Shown: piece after piece, positions 47,466-64,000 of the stretch
How the letters are laid out: each line of letters starts with the position of its first letter
Numbering within the stretch: position 1 is the first letter of the stretch
NCBI GenBank assembly: GCA_963806535.1
Contig: CAWDYC010000004.1
Location: 352,001 to 416,000 of the forward strand
From: Candidatus Bathyarchaeota archaeon
GTDB taxonomy: Archaea > Thermoproteota > Bathyarchaeia > Bathyarchaeales > Bathycorpusculaceae
Direction: 5' to 3'
DNA: 64,000 bases
Position numbers and translations under genes: made by a program
Notes under the pieces: generated by a model
Seen by the model: the letters and a program-made list of their open reading frames with translations, nothing else
Told to the model about the DNA's origin: nothing
Database searches by the model: none

Positions 47466-48794
47466 CTATGGGTTTGTTGGTTTTCTAAGAGCTAATGATA
47501 CTGCAGCCAACACGATTGCTAATAATGCAGCTATTTGGAAAGCAGGGACAAAACTTCCTGTTGTTGTCGCTATACTTCCCGCTATTAAAGGCCCCAGTAT
47601 AAAGCCTACCCCGCTTATGGCATTTACTAATCCTGACGCGGTTCCAGTAACTTTTGAAGGAAAATAATCGGGGATCATAGCAAATGTCACCGCAGAGGTT
47701 CCTATCGCAAAGCCCATTGCACCAACAATGACGTAAATGACTGCAATTTCTTTTCCTAAGCCTGTGAACACTAACAAACTCACCGCATACAAGATACTAG
47801 TCGTCGTTAAGACATATTTTCTTGGTACATAATCTGACATAAAACCCCATACATAACTCCCAAACATCATTGCTACCGCAAAAATGCTGAATGCACCGCC
47901 GGCTGCCAAAGGCGTCAATTTAACTTCCGTTATTAGGTAAGCTACAATAAAAAATGAGACTGTTTTGAATATAAAAACATTCAAAATATAAACGGTACCT
48001 AAGTGCCAAGTTATACCCATCTTAATTACATCTCTGCTACTTGCTTGTTCTTTTGGAGCTTTTTGCGACCTTGCTTTTGTTGTGTCCGCGGAATCTTTCA
48101 CTGGTTCTCCGCAGGGCAATAGGCCCTTTTCTTTGGGGCTATTTCTTACAAGGGCGTATACCGTTACAGTCAGGAAGAGACTTAATACGCCCAATATGTA
48201 CCAAACATTTCTCCAACCAAAAGCGATCATGATTAGTGGAACCGCTATTCCCAGCATCGCGTTCCAAAGAGTACGGGGACTATTGATGTAACTTTGTGCT
48301 ATGCCTCTTCTGCGACTACTAAACCACGCCCCCGCAAGTATTACACCTAGAGTTGTAGGTGCTCCAGCAGCGAATCCGATTATGGAATAAAAAACCATGC
48401 CAATAATAATTGAATTCATGGTTCCCATTCCTAAAGTGCCGATTGCTAGCATTAGGCATGCCAGAGTTAACGTTTTTCGCAATCCTATTTTGTCAGCCAA
48501 TATTCCCCATGAGAAAGCGCCAATGATGAAAAGAAACCCGTAGGTGGCTGAAATTGCTCCTGCTTGAGCATTCGATATTCCCACCTCTCTCTCAATATTT
48601 ACCAAGACCAGAGGCAAAGTTGACGTAGCTGTTGCCAAAACGAAGAGTGAATTTAGTCCACCAGTCGCGCAAATCCAGCCGTAATGGACTCTTGAACCGT
48701 TTTTATCTGATTGTTTTTGCGTAATCATATTAATTTGCAATCTGCCGTATTTCTTTTCTATCATATTTATTATTTTGCAAACAAAGTCGTGCAC
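47466..48794 (-). CDS. Major facilitator superfamily transporter
   Basis: About 12 TM; WGILADKIGLRK and WGFMSDYVPRK motif A; WFSSRRRG; start may lie downstream. Confidence 0.92.
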   Translation of the reverse strand: MHDFVCKIINMIEKKYGRLQINMITQKQSDKNGSRVHYGWICATGGLNSLFVLATATSTLPLVLVNIEREVGISNAQAGAISATYGFLFIIGAFSWGILADKIGLRKTLTLACLMLAIGTLGMGTMNSIIIGMVFYSIIGFAAGAPTTLGVILAGAWFSSRRRGIAQSYINSPRTLWNAMLGIAVPLIMIAFGWRNVWYILGVLSLFLTVTVYALVRNSPKEKGLLPCGEPVKDSADTTKARSQKAPKEQASSRDVIKMGITWHLGTVYILNVFIFKTVSFFIVAYLITEVKLTPLAAGGAFSIFAVAMMFGSYVWGFMSDYVPRKYVLTTTSILYAVSLLVFTGLGKEIAVIYVIVGAMGFAIGTSAVTFAMIPDYFPSKVTGTASGLVNAISGVGFILGPLIAGSIATTTGSFVPAFQIAALLAIVLAAVSLALRKPTNP

Positions 48795-48921
48795 ACATTT
48801 CTTTTTGAAAAAGTTTCTTCAGGAATAATCATGAACTCCTATTTTCTTTCTGAAGTGTTATCTTGAAATCGTTCTCTTGCTAAGAGCTAAAGTCTAATTG
48901 ACATTTTATATTAAAGCTGAT

Positions 48922-49792
48922 TTATATGGTTGCTTCAGTTGCTTCGCTCCAAAGTCGTTCAAAATAGTCTTGAAGTACAGCAACTAGACATGGGCTGTCG
49001 GAAAATAGTTTTGGATTCTCATACTTTTTGAGAGTTTATCCATTTGCGCGTTAGCAACTTCTAAACCCAGTCGGAAAATAGTTTTGGATTCTCATACTTT
49101 TTGAGGGCGGCATTTGTGACACTTACGAATACTTGCTTTTTATCCTCAATTCTAATAGTGGCTAATGGTTTTGTGGGAGTGAATCTTATTTCGACACAAG
49201 TGTTTTTCTTCAAAGCAAAAACTTTTGGTAAACGCTGTCCGTCTTTTGGCTGGCTGATGAGATATCGGAGCCTCACATTTTTCTCAATCAATTTCTCTAT
49301 TAATTCAGTATCGTTCATAACTCGATATTTAAATTCATCGAATGAATTGATAATATCAATGGTCTTTTGAGTGGCAGTCACTGCATCTTCCAATCTTCGG
49401 TTGTATGCGTCTTTTGTGGAAATTATTATGAATTCAGGTTCTTTGGTTGCAGGGTTTTCTTTTTGGTTAACTTTGAGTCTTTCAAGCAATTCGTTGGTTT
49501 TTTTCCTGAGATCATTGTATTGATGTGCCTTTTCTTTTAGTAAGACTTCTAATCCGTCTTTTAGTGGAATAGCCCTAAACTTGGTAGGTGCACCTACTAT
49601 TTTTTCTACTAAACTCTTTTCTTCCAACTCGGTCAGTATTCGGTAGATGTCCTGACGAGCAACTGCAGAGTCTTTCCAAATTATTGAGGCTTTGGCCGTT
49701 CCCATGCGTGATATTGCCAGGTATACTCTTGCCTGAGTGCTGGTAAGTCCAATGGCTACTAAGTTTTCAACGTCTAGTTTATTGGTGGCCAT
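48922..49792 (-). CDS. TrmB-family transcriptional regulator; 3' end interrupted (premature TAG at 49061, native stop at 48922)
   Basis: GLTSTQARVYL..VARQDIYRILTELEEKSLVEK..PTKFRAIP; displaced tail SPCLVAVLQDYFERLWSEA. Confidence 0.85.
48997..49105. repeat. Perfect 36-bp direct repeat around a 37-bp insert
   Basis: GTCGGAAAATAGTTTTGGATTCTCATACTTTTTGAG at 48997-49032 and 49070-49105. Confidence 0.95.
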
Positions 49793-49935
49793 TTTATTGA
49801 CCCGGAAATCTGAGTCTTCTTTTTGATTCTTTATATTATATATATTTTGGGGGTTTGTCAGCGGAGCCACTTACGCTAAGACCTTAAAAGTTTTGACCGA
49901 AGATTGGGCTTCACAGAAAAAAGGAAAGAACAAAC

Positions 49936-59420: not shown

Positions 59421-60593
59421 CTAGTGTTTCGCGTAGTAGTCTGCTACAGCCCAGAAAGATTCCTTTGGCTCCCATGTCATGTCGGAATATGTTTCTCCGT
59501 GCTCACCGAGCTTACCCGTAAATTTGGCTAACGTTTCGGGAGCTAGATTTACACCCACGAATTCCTTTCCCTGTCTTGCGCTCTGAGATATTATCTTTTC
59601 AAACGTGTCCTTCTCCGGGTAGCTTTTTACCAAGCCATAGCTGCCCATGTCCATGTCGAATCTGGGGTCTTCGTTATAGGTTGAAGTTGGAGAGACAAAT
59701 GTGAAAACGAAAGCACCCTCAACGCCTGCAGTATCCAGTATAGTGAGTTGTTCAATAATTTCCCGTGCCTGCAAACTCTCGTCTCGAACATAATGACCAT
59801 TAACCTTCGGGATAATCTTAACCATGTCACTAAGTGCCTTGGGCAGATCTACGCTTGAGCCGAGATAATCAGCCATCATACCAAACACAATAATGAAACC
59901 GTTCCCACCAAGCTTCTCTGCTCCTTGATAGGTGCAACAACCGAATTCCCCAATCATGACAGGTTTGTTGTACACATGGTATTTGCTGACCAATTTATCG
60001 TACAAATCTTTGATTCGAGCATCTCGATAGAGGTCAACGCCAACAAAGTCAAAAGGTGTCCAGTTGACCGTTTCAAGCGGAACTGAAAAGTATGTAAGTG
60101 GACCATGAAATACCTCTCTGACTGCTTTGTTTGCTTTTGTTAGGAATGCGTTAAGTGGCTCGTTGTGCTTGCCAGATTTGATGGTTTCCCAGAACGCGGG
60201 ATTGTTCATCCGCTCAAAGAAATTAGCGCCTTCAACTATATCCTGCATAAATAGCGTTAACTCTGAACCAAGGCTGAACACAAGCTTTCCAGGCCATCGC
60301 TGTCTCAAGCTTTCTGCAGCTATAGCGGCTTTTGTGATATATTGAAGCGTTTCTTCTTGGCTTCTGTCCCACATCTCTGGTGAGAACCACACTTCCAATC
60401 CCTGAGTAAGTGCGTCTTGGCTAGCAATTATTAGCCTTTCAATGTCGAGACCGCAAATTCTCACGGCATTACAATGTAAGTCATTTCTGATTATTTCAAG
60501 TTCTCGATGCACAACTTTGGGATCGAATTTAGGTCGCCATTCACTTCCCATCATCACGCGCCCAACATCGTAACAAACGCCTTTTAGATTCAT
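59421..60593 (-). CDS. TIM-barrel glycoside-hydrolase-like protein (family often annotated abortive infection protein)
   Basis: KGVCYDVG, RELEIIRNDLHCNAVRICG, GSELTLF, VGVDLYRD, IGEFGCCTYQGA. Confidence 0.7.
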   Translation of the reverse strand: MNLKGVCYDVGRVMMGSEWRPKFDPKVVHRELEIIRNDLHCNAVRICGLDIERLIIASQDALTQGLEVWFSPEMWDRSQEETLQYITKAAIAAESLRQRWPGKLVFSLGSELTLFMQDIVEGANFFERMNNPAFWETIKSGKHNEPLNAFLTKANKAVREVFHGPLTYFSVPLETVNWTPFDFVGVDLYRDARIKDLYDKLVSKYHVYNKPVMIGEFGCCTYQGAEKLGGNGFIIVFGMMADYLGSSVDLPKALSDMVKIIPKVNGHYVRDESLQAREIIEQLTILDTAGVEGAFVFTFVSPTSTYNEDPRFDMDMGSYGLVKSYPEKDTFEKIISQSARQGKEFVGVNLAPETLAKFTGKLGEHGETYSDMTWEPKESFWAVADYYAKH

Positions 60594-61211
60594 TTAACTC
60601 ACTCCCTGGGTGTCTGGTTTGAGCATCCGCAGGATAATTTTTGTATCAGGAAAATGCTTTTTGTAATCTGCTGGGTCAAGCATAGATGCTCTTTTCATCA
60701 AGCCATCAAAACAGGCTAAGAGAGCAACCATCAACTGGTCAGGGTCATCCTTTGCAATCTCACCAGTAGCCTGCCCTTCAACGATTAGCTTCCGAATAAT
60801 ATCTTGAATAACCTTACCATTTCTCAGAACAAACTGCTTAAGATCATGCGGCGTTGAGTCGTCGGTCAAAACCTGATGCATTAACTGTGAATATCCAGGG
60901 TTTTCGCGTCTGTCTTCTAAAATGTATGAAATTAAAAGCGTTAGACGCATTCCGGGTGTACCTTGGATTTGCTCTATGCGAGCTGCTGGTCCGCTCCCTG
61001 ACTCTGTTACCTGTTTTATCAGGATAGAAAAGATTTCCTCTTTACTGGCGAAATAGTGGTATGCTAATCCTTGGCTAATTCCTGCCTCGGCTGCTATTTC
61101 AGCCATTGTCGCAGCTCGACCTTTTGTTGCAAAGACCGTTCTGGCCGCCTCTAAGATTTTCTTGGTTGTTTCTTTTCTAATTTGTTCGTTCTTTTGTTCG
61201 CTTTTTGGCAT
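60594..61211 (-). CDS. TetR/AcrR family transcriptional regulator
   Basis: KILEAARTVFATKG..ATMAEIAAEAGISQGLAYHYFASKEEI. Confidence 0.93.
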   Translation of the reverse strand: MPKSEQKNEQIRKETTKKILEAARTVFATKGRAATMAEIAAEAGISQGLAYHYFASKEEIFSILIKQVTESGSGPAARIEQIQGTPGMRLTLLISYILEDRRENPGYSQLMHQVLTDDSTPHDLKQFVLRNGKVIQDIIRKLIVEGQATGEIAKDDPDQLMVALLACFDGLMKRASMLDPADYKKHFPDTKIILRMLKPDTQGVS

Positions 61212-61232
61212 TTCAAAGTGCCCCTTTTGTAT

Positions 61233-61251
61233 ATTGAATAAACTATTCAAT
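61233..61251. promoter_or_regulatory. Putative TetR operator
   Basis: Perfect inverted repeat ATTGAATA-AAC-TATTCAAT about 22 nt upstream of the tetR ATG. Confidence 0.7.
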
Positions 61252-61303
61252 CAACTAATAAATATTCTCCAATAGGCACTCTTCTTGCGTCCCTAAACGA
61301 TCA

Positions 61304-61450
61304 AGTTATTGACGGTTTTTGTACAGCTTTTTTCTTTGTGTTTTAAGTTGCTTTCTTGGTTTAGGCTTTGTTTTGTTTGCAGGTTGCGTCTTTAAATGTA
61401 GGAAAATGTAGGGATCTGTAAGAATCTGTAAAAAAATGTAAGAAAAAGGC
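61304..61450 (+). repeat. Dispersed element copy D: head plus GTA repeats at 10-bp phase
   Basis: aggttgcGTC tttaaatGTA ggaaaatGTA gggatctGTA agaatctGTA aaaaaatGTA; shares upstream AGTTATTGACG with copy B. Confidence 0.85.
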
Positions 61451-61519
61451 AGAAATAAGTTGGCGTAAACTTTCAAGAAGTGACGCTTAGCGTTTCTACT
61501 GCATTTTCTTACGCAAATT

Positions 61520-61660
61520 TGTTCTTTGTGTTTCAGTTTGTATTCTTGGTTTAGGGTTTGGGTTAGTTGCAGGACGCGTCACTATAAGTCACTATAAGTC
61601 ATAGGAAGTCACCAAAAGTCACTACGCGTCATAAAAAGTCACAGAAAGTCACAAAAAGAC
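61520..61660 (+). repeat. Dispersed element copy E: head plus GTC repeats at 10-bp phase
   Basis: aggacgcGTC actataaGTC actataaGTC ataggaaGTC accaaaaGTC actacgcGTC ataaaaaGTC acagaaaGTC. Confidence 0.88.
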
Positions 61661-61708
61661 CCTCCCCAGCTCTTAAGTCTTGAAAATCTTCACTGTGCCT
61701 TACAAGAA

Positions 61709-61900
61709 TTATTTTGAATCTCGGTCAGATTCGCCCCAATACAAATCCTGCAGCTCAACAGTGCTAAGCTGCTTATCTGCGTCCACTTTAAGTTCCGTTC
61801 CGCAGTTAGGGCACTGAATGGTTTCGCCAGGCTGAGCATACAGCAAAAAATCTGGTTTATTAGAAAAATCAAACCCACACTCAGGACACTTCTCACCCAT
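61709..61900 (-). CDS. LysW-like double-CxxC zinc-ribbon protein
   Basis: CPECG..GETIQCPNCGTELKV..ELQDLYWGE then SDRDSK; GAGGGG upstream. Confidence 0.7.
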   Translation of the reverse strand: MGEKCPECGFDFSNKPDFLLYAQPGETIQCPNCGTELKVDADKQLSTVELQDLYWGESDRDSK

Positions 61901-62016
61901 GCACTACCCCTCGAAATCCAATTAAGACCACATATGCAACAAACACAAATCACTTTAATTCAATAAATAATTTTGCCCATCATCGGTGAGACACGAGTTT
62001 TGTTTTTTATGCAATT

Positions 62017-62137
62017 TGTCCTTTGCGTTTTGGACTGCTTTTTTGGTTCAGGGTTTGTTGCGTTTGCAGGTTGCGTCTTTATCTGCAAGAAAACGCAAAT
62101 AAACGCAAGAATCTGCAAAAAAACGCAAGAAAAAGCG
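62017..62137 (+). repeat. Dispersed element copy F: head plus GCA repeats at 10-bp phase
   Basis: ttgcGTCttt atctGCAaga aaacGCAaat aaacGCAaga atctGCAaaa aaacGCAaga. Confidence 0.85.
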
Positions 62138-62157
62138 TTCACTCTCAAGAAGTGAAA

Positions 62158-62181
62158 GGTGGGGCTGGCAGGATTTGAACC
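62158..62181 (-). other. tRNA 3' fragment, att-like
   Basis: Reverse complement GGTTCAAATCCTGCCAGCCCCACC (T-loop plus acceptor strand); no 5' half. Confidence 0.7.
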
Positions 62182-62289
62182 AAGAACCGCGCCAAGCCGA
62201 CTCAAGCGTTTTCTTGAGGCATGCTTGTCTGTTTTTTCTTCTTTTGATCAAGTACTCAGCCAAGAGTTGTTTAAAAGAAAGGTGAAGGT

Positions 62290-62547
62290 TTAAGGAATGA
62301 ATCCTCTCATGCAAGGTACATATCCGTAGTTTGCTGGCGTACCTTGATATGCTGATGTTCCAGTTCCAGAGTATCTTGTTCCTCCGAATCCAAAGCATCT
62401 ACCCATCCATCCGAAGACACCATTGTTTGAGGCTGCATTTGTTGTTCCATTTGGGTTTGAAGTAACGATTTGTGCTGAAACTAATCCAACCACGGTTATT
62501 GCTAATACTCCGACTATGACCAATGCGACTATTAGTTTGGTGTTCAT
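62290..62547 (-). CDS. Small secreted Gly-rich protein
   Basis: MNTKLIVALVIVGVLAITVVGLVSAQ signal peptide; GAGGTGA upstream; two Cys. Confidence 0.7.
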   Translation of the reverse strand: MNTKLIVALVIVGVLAITVVGLVSAQIVTSNPNGTTNAASNNGVFGWMGRCFGFGGTRYSGTGTSAYQGTPANYGYVPCMRGFIP

Positions 62548-62767
62548 GTTCTTTTTCACCTCAATACATATTATGGTATTCGAATCATTTGATAGTTGGC
62601 TGAAACAATTATGAAACAGTTTTTTGAAACGTTTTTTCCATTGAAAAAAGGGAATGACTCTGAAAGTTAGCCAAGGATTTTTTTGTAGCATGAGTGGAAC
62701 AGAAATATTAGTTTAACTAAACCTCATACCATACCCATAAACGTCAAGGAATCACTCAGTTAAGAAA

Positions 62768-62797
62768 TCTTGACTAAGAATAGGTGTTTAGTCAAGA
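62768..62797. promoter_or_regulatory. Perfect 10-bp inverted repeat upstream of a secreted-protein gene
   Basis: TCTTGACTAA-N10-TTAGTCAAGA. Confidence 0.55.
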
Positions 62798-62855
62798 ACC
62801 TTTTACGAGAACCCTTTTATCGAGACAACACGCTTGTTTCAATAGAGTTGTAGCT

Positions 62856-64000
62856 ATGAAAAAGGCTTTCCTCAGCGTATTCGTGATAGCCCTCATGATT
62901 AGCGGATTAGCTTCTATCGGAAGTGTGAATCTTAGCACGCAAGCTCAACCACCTGAGTCAAACGCAAATCCTCAATGGGTTCCAGATTCGGCTCTGGTCA
63001 ATGGATTACCAGAATTAGGCCTTATCGGAGAGAATTGTCAATGCTCTATCTTCAACTTGACAGGTAATAATCAATGGAGCCTAATAATAGGTCAAACTAA
63101 CAGTTGGACATTAAATGAGCATCCCTTTTTAGGATACTATTGGGACGGCTCCCAGTGGACCAGCAACTCTACGATAGTCCAAGGTTTAACCGCGTACCCC
63201 AACGAAAACGACCCTACTGTTGGTTTCAATGTTACTGGCGACAACAAGTTTGACATGATAGTCGCCCAATGGGCAGGATATAATCCAACCTCTGGCGTAC
63301 AAAATAATTACGGACCTTGCTGGACAGGATATTCTTGGACCGGTTCTCAATGGGTGGTCAATTCAACCATAATTAACGGCTTACCGACGAATGCTTCTTT
63401 TGGTGGCGGAAACAACTATGCAACTTTGGGTTACAACGTGCTAGGTGACGGCAAATGGGATCTAGTCGTTGACAACTACGGAAACAATGGCTATGTCGGG
63501 TTTGAATGGAATGGAACAGCGTGGGCACAAGAAAGCAATCTAGTGAATGGCTTGCCCAATGCAGGTTCGCCTGGCAATAGCAACCAATTCCCAATTCCAT
63601 GTTTAACTAATAACTTGTCAAACGACAACACACCGACGCTTATAGTCGGTTATTCGAGCGGCGGCGGCCCTAATGGATCAATACAGAGTTTTCAATGGGA
63701 AGGTACAATATGGGTGTCAAACCCAGCATTCAACGTGGGTGTTACTAACCTGCAACCTTGGCCTAATTCTCCAACCGTAGCTTACAATATCACTGGAAAT
63801 GGCCGATGGGAACTATTGATAGGTTCCAGCACGGCGAATCCTGACCAACCAACTTATTATACTGGTTATTACTGGTCCGCTAATAGCGTTCCACTATCAG
63901 TCTCGATAACTCCACTTTCCGTTTCAATGAACATCGGGGAATCCTTAAATTTCACCTCAATTGCATCTGGCGGCACATGGCCCTACAACTATCAATGGTA
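62856..64000 (+). CDS. Secreted repeat protein (FG-GAP-like propeller blades followed by a PKD-like domain), partial
   Basis: MKKAFLSVFVIALMISGLA signal; about 5 repeats of LVNGLP..N.TG...W.L.VG..GY.W.G..W; ASGGTWPYNYQW at the window end; absent from the ORF track. Confidence 0.8.
   Translation, partial: MKKAFLSVFVIALMISGLASIGSVNLSTQAQPPESNANPQWVPDSALVNGLPELGLIGENCQCSIFNLTGNNQWSLIIGQTNSWTLNEHPFLGYYWDGSQWTSNSTIVQGLTAYPNENDPTVGFNVTGDNKFDMIVAQWAGYNPTSGVQNNYGPCWTGYSWTGSQWVVNSTIINGLPTNASFGGGNNYATLGYNVLGDGKWDLVVDNYGNNGYVGFEWNGTAWAQESNLVNGLPNAGSPGNSNQFPIPCLTNNLSNDNTPTLIVGYSSGGGPNGSIQSFQWEGTIWVSNPAFNVGVTNLQPWPNSPTVAYNITGNGRWELLIGSSTANPDQPTYYTGYYWSANSVPLSVSITPLSVSMNIGESLNFTSIASGGTWPYNYQW

Follow-up and report, generated by a model that had tools for sequence, protein, structure and literature searches.

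A perfect 36-nt duplication around a spacer-sized insert in a TrmB-family regulator gene of a Bathyarchaeota archaeon: a candidate off-target CRISPR integration

How does a 37-nucleotide (nt) sequence come to lie between two perfect copies of a 36-nt stretch of coding sequence, inside the gene for a conserved regulator? The question is raised by a TrmB-family gene in a 64,000-nt stretch of DNA from Candidatus Bathyarchaeota archaeon (assembly GCA_963806535.1, termed here G000; contig CAWDYC010000004.1, positions 352,001 to 416,000 of the forward strand), which we call the window and to which all plain coordinates refer. A first-pass annotation had described a 36-bp perfect duplication around a 37-bp insert in trmB and had taken it for an off-target acquisition by the adaptation enzymes of a CRISPR system. 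Exact repeat comparison bore out the anatomy: 36-mers that are 100% identical occupy positions 48997-49032 and 49070-49105, with a start-to-start distance of 73, and 37 nt at 49033-49069 separate them. The bases immediately outside both copies differ on either side, so the duplication is no longer than 36 nt. On the minus strand, CT forms both the end of the insert and the start of the repeat, which leaves lengths of 34-36 nt equally compatible with the sequence.

Read along the minus strand, the interrupted gene (49061..49870, minus strand) is an open reading frame (ORF) of 269 codons from its first GTG, for which the database gene call, P0001, starts at an ATG and yields 243 amino acids (aa) with a match to the TrmB family PF01978 (E 2.7e-13, above the curated cut-off). 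Its reading ends LKKYENPKLFSD-WV-stop: copy 1 of the target (49070..49105, minus strand) codes for LKKYENPKLFSD, which stands at the truncated protein's end, and the insert (49033..49069, assigned to neither strand) adds WV and a TAG stop to the trmB frame. Copy 2 (48997..49032, minus strand) is out of frame with the upstream gene and opens an intact frame that continues into a displaced native C-terminal tail, SPCLVAVLQDYFERLWSEATEATI plus stop (48922..48996, minus strand). PF01978 is also carried by 27 other homologues (28 proteins listed with P0001 included), some of whose sources are named as Bathyarchaeia or Bathyarchaeota. Copy 2 and the sequence downstream of it together encode LKKYENPKLFSDSPCLVAVLQDYFERLWSEATEATI, and this aligns to the C-terminus conserved in six homologues (P0002-P0006 and P0009; 52-75% identical), in all six of which LFSD/N is joined directly to SPCLVxxLQDYFExxW. 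This unbroken C-terminus argues, on the strength of the alignment, that the ancestral gene was contiguous, at ~265 aa, and that the 73 bp are a secondary (i.e., derived) insertion. The added 73 nt shift the frame, cut the protein from ~265 to 243 aa and remove a conserved 24-residue C-terminus, and for that reason the regulator is probably inactive or altered. The frame reading and the homologues thus uphold the earlier description of an added stop and a displaced native tail, and the family match and alignment do the same for the claim that a trmB regulator had been mutated.

Across the 12 contigs of the assembly, the 36-mer (beyond its own two copies) and the 37-mer are each unique, which extends to the genome the earlier remark that the insert occurs nowhere else in the window. 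When the whole genome was scanned for exact direct repeats (>=20 nt long, 25-200 nt apart), 11 pairs emerged, among which this one is the sole isolated repeat-insert-repeat in the 2.95-Mb assembly; by our own arithmetic, a 36-nt identity by chance in ~3 Mb would be of the order of 1e-9. The remaining pairs are tandem coding or tRNA-like repeats. Outside the window, at G000:C5:21354-21610, there is a tandem duplication with a 127-nt period whose unit includes a tRNA-like sequence.

Might the structure have arisen within the genome itself, by tandem duplication of a 73-nt segment or through unequal exchange with a TrmB paralogue, the middle part having diverged afterwards? The genome does hold many TrmB paralogues (14 matches), yet the 36-mers are identical while the insert shows only background identity to the flanking 37 nt (9/37 and 14/37, counted by eye) and matches neither a paralogue nor any other site in the genome. 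On these grounds we set this origin of the insert aside as highly improbable. A transposon, insertion sequence or casposon, or the footprint of one, was likewise rejected, given the 36-nt duplication, an insert of only 37 nt and the absence of inverted repeats: none was found in 48500-49600, nor are any present at the insert's ends. Of the six frames of the insert, two stay open (GLEVANAQMDK on the minus strand and SLSICALATSKP on the plus strand), both of which are too short to serve as coding evidence.

The dimensions of the structure had been called CRISPR-like, and the arrays of the genus agree. Cas1 is present in 8 of 24 other genomes of the genus, and the leader and first repeat of one array, that of congener G016, are matched in 22 of 100 genomes at E <=0.001 (the match in G000 itself being judged to be chance). 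The G016 array comprises 66 repeats of 37 nt and stands beside Cas4-Cas2-Cas1-Cas6b-Cas3-Cas5-Cas7, a locus that is type I-B-like; in its true orientation, the reverse of the locus strand, the repeat ends in ATTGAAAC and the leader adjoins cas4. Eleven array loci in the genus share a single repeat family, with repeats of 37 nt and spacers of 31-50 nt, and their 218 repeat periods range from 68 to 87, with a mode of 73 (49/218) and with 74 in 39/218. The period of the scar, 73, is thus the modal period of the genus arrays, but it is split 36 + 37 in place of the usual 37 + 36. At 37 nt, the insert falls in the spacer range and has the spacer length seen in 39 of the 218 family periods. Alternatively, the structure could be parsed as a 36-nt spacer inside a 37-nt duplication that has a single mismatch at its border, which would fit the modes exactly and would need an extra change.

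Other arrays and Cas1 genes turned up during this survey. A 30-nt repeat array in G004 was considered as kin of the site and dropped, as it bears no resemblance to it (0.89 of random 36-mers align equally well). At locus L034 (G023:C12:88398-91595), a congener that lacks a Cas1 match (86% complete) retains a leader together with two or more repeats of the 37-nt family, in appearance an orphan mini-array, with one period of 73 counted; it suggests that the 37-nt-repeat CRISPR-Cas system is gained and lost within the genus. G016 has two further Cas1 homologues (E ~1e-46), at L022 (G016:C5:442000-461999) and L023 (G016:C5:23000-42999), and the 20 kb retrieved around either of them contains no CRISPR array; these homologues may be casposon-type or solo Cas1 genes.

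Does the target itself look like a place at which such a system would integrate? With the 73 nt deleted in silico, we set the ancestral site against leader-repeat junctions of the genus, keeping the junction in register. Against the last 20 leader bases plus the 37-nt repeat of G016, the site is identical at 29/57 positions, and only 1.5e-4 of genome positions and strands do as well; against G017 it is identical at 25/57, a score reached by 5e-3 of genome positions and strands. To the 29 identities, the 20 nt upstream of the duplicated target (49106..49125, minus strand, inside the trmB-like coding sequence), a leader-like flank, contribute 11/20, and copy 1, which would be the leader-proximal pseudo-repeat in the orientation that we infer, contributes 18/36 when aligned ungapped from the junction. 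The likeness lies in the leader and in repeat bases 1-25, with the blocks TC-AAAAG (positions 2-9) and CAAAAC (20-25) common to the site and the G016 repeat. A profile built from 10 of 12 fetched junctions (L040 was dropped as an internal repeat after a spacer, and L043 as identical to L044) placed the site in the top 1.7e-4 of genome positions (1027 positions), or the top 2.0e-4 when G016 was left out; the leader part alone reached the top 1.7e-3 and the repeat part alone the top 6.8e-3, and a reversed-profile control gave 0.15 and 0.83. With the comparison restricted to the sense strand of ORFs of 150 codons or more, the fraction was 2.3e-4 (505/2,181,765). The target thus appears to resemble a leader-repeat junction of the genus, in register, although in absolute terms the resemblance is weak.

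Given its anatomy, the evidence that the insertion is derived, its modal period of 73 and its in-register likeness to a junction, we favor, with moderate confidence, one ectopic full-site integration of a spacer by Cas1-Cas2 enzymes of a type I-B-like system. Under this mechanism, the enzyme would have docked on the coding strand of the trmB-like gene, at a site loosely resembling a leader-repeat junction; two staggered transesterifications 36 nt apart would have joined a 37-nt prespacer, presumably of foreign source; and gap repair would have duplicated the 36-nt target. The outcome would be the +73-nt frameshift, with the protein ending after ...LFSD-WV. Other explanations retain part of the probability because no cas genes were found in the assembly, the duplication is 36 nt and bases at the junction are mismatched.

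A number of results weigh against integration by Cas1-Cas2, beginning with the site itself. The profile score is negative in absolute terms (-12.7 bits), and ~1000 genome positions score equally well or better; the site matches 14 of the 32 invariant columns of the 10 junctions; and the opposite orientation of the site is also moderate, at 0.03. At the leader-side cut, the site has C at both -1 and +1, where all 10 arrays have T|G, and the 3' third of the repeat, which includes the handle of the CRISPR RNA (crRNA), is unmatched. The similarity test was, moreover, devised after the likeness had been noticed by eye, and several sub-windows were tried, so that the best of them (2.4e-5) is a post hoc value. 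The duplication, at 36 nt (34-36 nt possible), also falls short of the 37-nt repeats of the congeners' family, and the whole structure is read from a single assembly.

The genome, in turn, offers no machinery. Assembly G000 (2.95 Mb in 12 contigs, 91.75% complete) has no family match for Cas1 (PF01867) or Cas2 (PF09827), nor for Cas4, Cas6, Cas3-HD or RAMP proteins, and tblastn with every cas protein of the G016 locus found nothing in it. The genome-wide direct-repeat scan revealed no CRISPR-like array, and repeat queries that were cut one to a few bases off register, yet spanned most of each repeat, recovered no repeat remnant. At 91.75% completeness, the absence of cas genes from G000 is not proven. 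The first-pass annotation had asked whether the genome has cas1 and cas2 alongside repeats and spacers of matching size: G000 shows neither gene nor any array, and only at the level of the genus does Cas1 appear, in the congeners that bear it. The enzyme that we infer may be encoded in DNA missing from the assembly, may since have been lost or may have been supplied by a mobile element; only tentatively would we propose that the adaptation module was not chromosomally encoded, being virus- or plasmid-borne, or that it was lost soon after. If the integration is real, its presence in a genome without cas genes would point to recent loss of CRISPR-Cas or to enzymes supplied in trans.

Two other regions of G000 were compared with the G016 locus. 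A match to the G016 leader at G000:C3:77473-77499 (27 nt, of which 25 are identical) was discarded as chance, as it lies in apparent coding sequence with no repeat following. Outside the window, G000:C3:382776-386159 holds genes in common with the flank of the G016 cas locus, at 65-78% protein identity; the shared genes map to G000:C3:382776-384414, and, judged by eye, the opening residues of the ORFs resemble those of a mobile element or provirus. Synteny with that flank is uninformative about the loss of CRISPR.

Nor did the insert lead back to a donor. The 37-mer had no match in viral, metagenome and genome contig collections, either as an exact sequence or with every third base left free, a pattern that covers the wobble positions of both open frames. 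Allowing up to three mismatches, the only copy in 400 genomes of the order was its own, and blastn against phages and plasmids returned only chance matches (E >=2). Within its own genome, blastn-short found nothing longer than 14 nt, and tblastn with the short peptides gave only chance matches. With no protospacer located in the collections searched, no protospacer-adjacent motif (PAM) was found, and the source and adjacent PAM for which the earlier description had called both eluded us in viral, metagenome, genome, phage and plasmid sequences alike. Spacers in archaea usually have no traceable source, and these negative results are not decisive.

The same gaps, no source for the insert and no cas genes, could be taken to mean that the 73 extra bases are an artefact of sequencing or assembly, absent from the DNA of the organism or present only in chimeric molecules, particularly since the evidence is one assembly of an uncultivated organism, in which the protein itself is one member sequence from one contig. 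We regard this as quite unlikely: the structure is the only one of its kind in 2.95 Mb, an artefact would not be expected to yield a junction likeness in the top 0.02% or the modal period of 73, and we know of no artefact by which 37 unrelated nt would come to be enclosed by a perfect direct duplication of 36 nt. Were it one nonetheless, the locus would have value only as a warning.

A real insertion could also have come about by another route, such as repair of a staggered break with filler DNA, templating by polymerase switching, or an integrase or transposase of an unknown, long-stagger kind. Such an origin would accommodate an assembly without cas genes, a duplication of 36 rather than 37 nt and the unmatched bases at -1 and +1, and the minus-strand insert and the native tail do have a 7-mer in common, AGTTGCT, offset by one base, although the probability of this sharing (p ~0.01-0.06) is a rough estimate of our own, made after the fact. 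On the other side, ordinary transposases duplicate ~2-14 bp of target, the insert has no terminal inverted repeats, and no template longer than 14 nt exists in the genome for either of its strands. The duplication made by a casposase is far shorter as well (15 bp; PMC5137440). Nor do these routes predict the 73-nt period or a likeness to a leader-repeat junction in register, and we therefore rate them as unlikely, if less so than an artefact.

How does integration by Cas1-Cas2, the explanation that we prefer, compare with what is known of such enzymes? In vitro, Cas1-Cas2 of Pyrococcus furiosus carries out full-site integration at non-CRISPR sites, with cuts 30-31 bp apart, i.e., at repeat length; one preferred off-target site is 43% identical to the repeat, and specificity lies chiefly in the leader-repeat junction and an A-rich block in mid-repeat (PMC6698737). 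The trmB site is similar in its partial identity to a repeat (18/36) and in having TC-AAAAG near the junction and CAAAAC in mid-repeat, both in register; it differs in that the P. furiosus work concerned a 30-nt repeat on plasmids in vitro, whereas here a 37-nt family and a chromosomal event are at issue and the enzyme is unobserved. In the type I-B system of Haloarcula hispanica, the leader-repeat junction marks the start of the duplication, and its end lies at a fixed distance from a motif in mid-repeat; when the spacing of the motif is altered, duplications of 29 or 31-33 bp arise in place of 30 (PMC4872114). A ruler of this kind, with deviations of 1-3 bp, would allow 36 nt instead of 37, although the motifs of H. 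hispanica, AACCC and GTGGG, are different.

Off-target integration has also been described in vivo, in Escherichia coli type I-E, where it creates "neo-CRISPR" loci (Nivala, Shipman & Church 2018, Nat Microbiol 3:310, as cited in 10.1101/148544, PMC7054753, PMC11788318 and PMC9456107). Those events likewise combine a spacer-sized insert with a repeat-length chromosomal duplication at a partly leader-repeat-like site and can hit genes; they differ from the present case in that Cas1-Cas2 was over-produced, whereas the event proposed here would be natural, in Bathyarchaeia, with I-B-like dimensions and in an assembly without cas genes. Evidence for natural off-target integration is termed "circumstantial" and concerns two other species (10.1101/148544). 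The casposase, a Cas1 homologue, duplicates 15 bp of its target (PMC5137440); a casposon thus resembles our locus in staggered integration with target duplication at a site like a leader-repeat junction, and is unlike it in its 15-bp duplication, its length of many kb and its terminal inverted repeats, where the locus has 36 bp around 37 nt, no inverted repeats and no Cas1 homologue in the assembly. In a limited search of the literature, we found no description of a natural in-gene off-target integration in an archaeon.

The first-pass annotation had further spoken of a nascent array, and, while off-target integration is the part of that proposal that we favor, these words overstate the case: the scar is an insertional mutation and not a functioning CRISPR array. 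The pseudo-repeat is TrmB coding sequence, and its 3' end, TTTTCCGAC, differs from the invariant GGATTGAAAC of the family repeats. Because the pseudo-repeat lacks the conserved 3' ATTGAAAC end and the assembly has no Cas6 gene, a capacity to make crRNA is not suggested. An Rfam scan of 48800-49300 found no family beyond chance, with only sub-threshold noise resembling small nucleolar RNAs. If the two 36-nt copies recombined, the gene could be restored exactly, and the knockout would then be reversible by deletion.

If integration by Cas1-Cas2 is the correct explanation, the locus would exemplify in nature what is known chiefly from experiments (with E. coli that over-expresses the enzymes, and in vitro); natural and fixed off-target integrations are barely documented. 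That a conserved regulator is interrupted would then mean that CRISPR adaptation carries a real mutational cost in nature, and the sequence rules of a I-B integrase that is as yet unstudied could be read from an off-target site that arose in nature. Should the adaptation module have been non-chromosomal or lost, an archaeal genome without Cas would hold a datable "fossil" of CRISPR adaptation, and scars with lineage-specific repeat and spacer dimensions could then be used to gauge both the mutational cost of adaptation and its past activity in wild genomes.

What remains are the surroundings of the gene. Downstream and on the same (minus) strand lies an MFS transporter gene (47466..48794; PF07690 MFS_1, E 8e-44; PF00083 Sugar_tr, E 1.3e-10), which, from gene order, is a possible regulatory target of the TrmB-like protein. 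The neighbors are ordinary chromosomal genes, which, besides the MFS transporter, encode a PQQ-repeat protein, a glycosyltransferase, an isochorismatase, a flavodoxin and a PAS histidine kinase, and no mobile-element genes were seen among them. Elsewhere in the window, three paralogous intergenic modules of ~150 nt each occupy 61318-61470, 61500-61680 and 61995-62150 on the plus strand, in a region (60500-63000) where ARAGORN detects no tRNA. Each has a conserved 5' part of ~70 nt, followed by five to eight units of a phased 10-nt repeat, in which the word of 5-6 nt is specific to the module (TGTAAG, GTCAC or CGCAAG). By blastn, one of these modules has 18 matches on 9 of the 12 contigs, which makes it a member of a dispersed repeat family.
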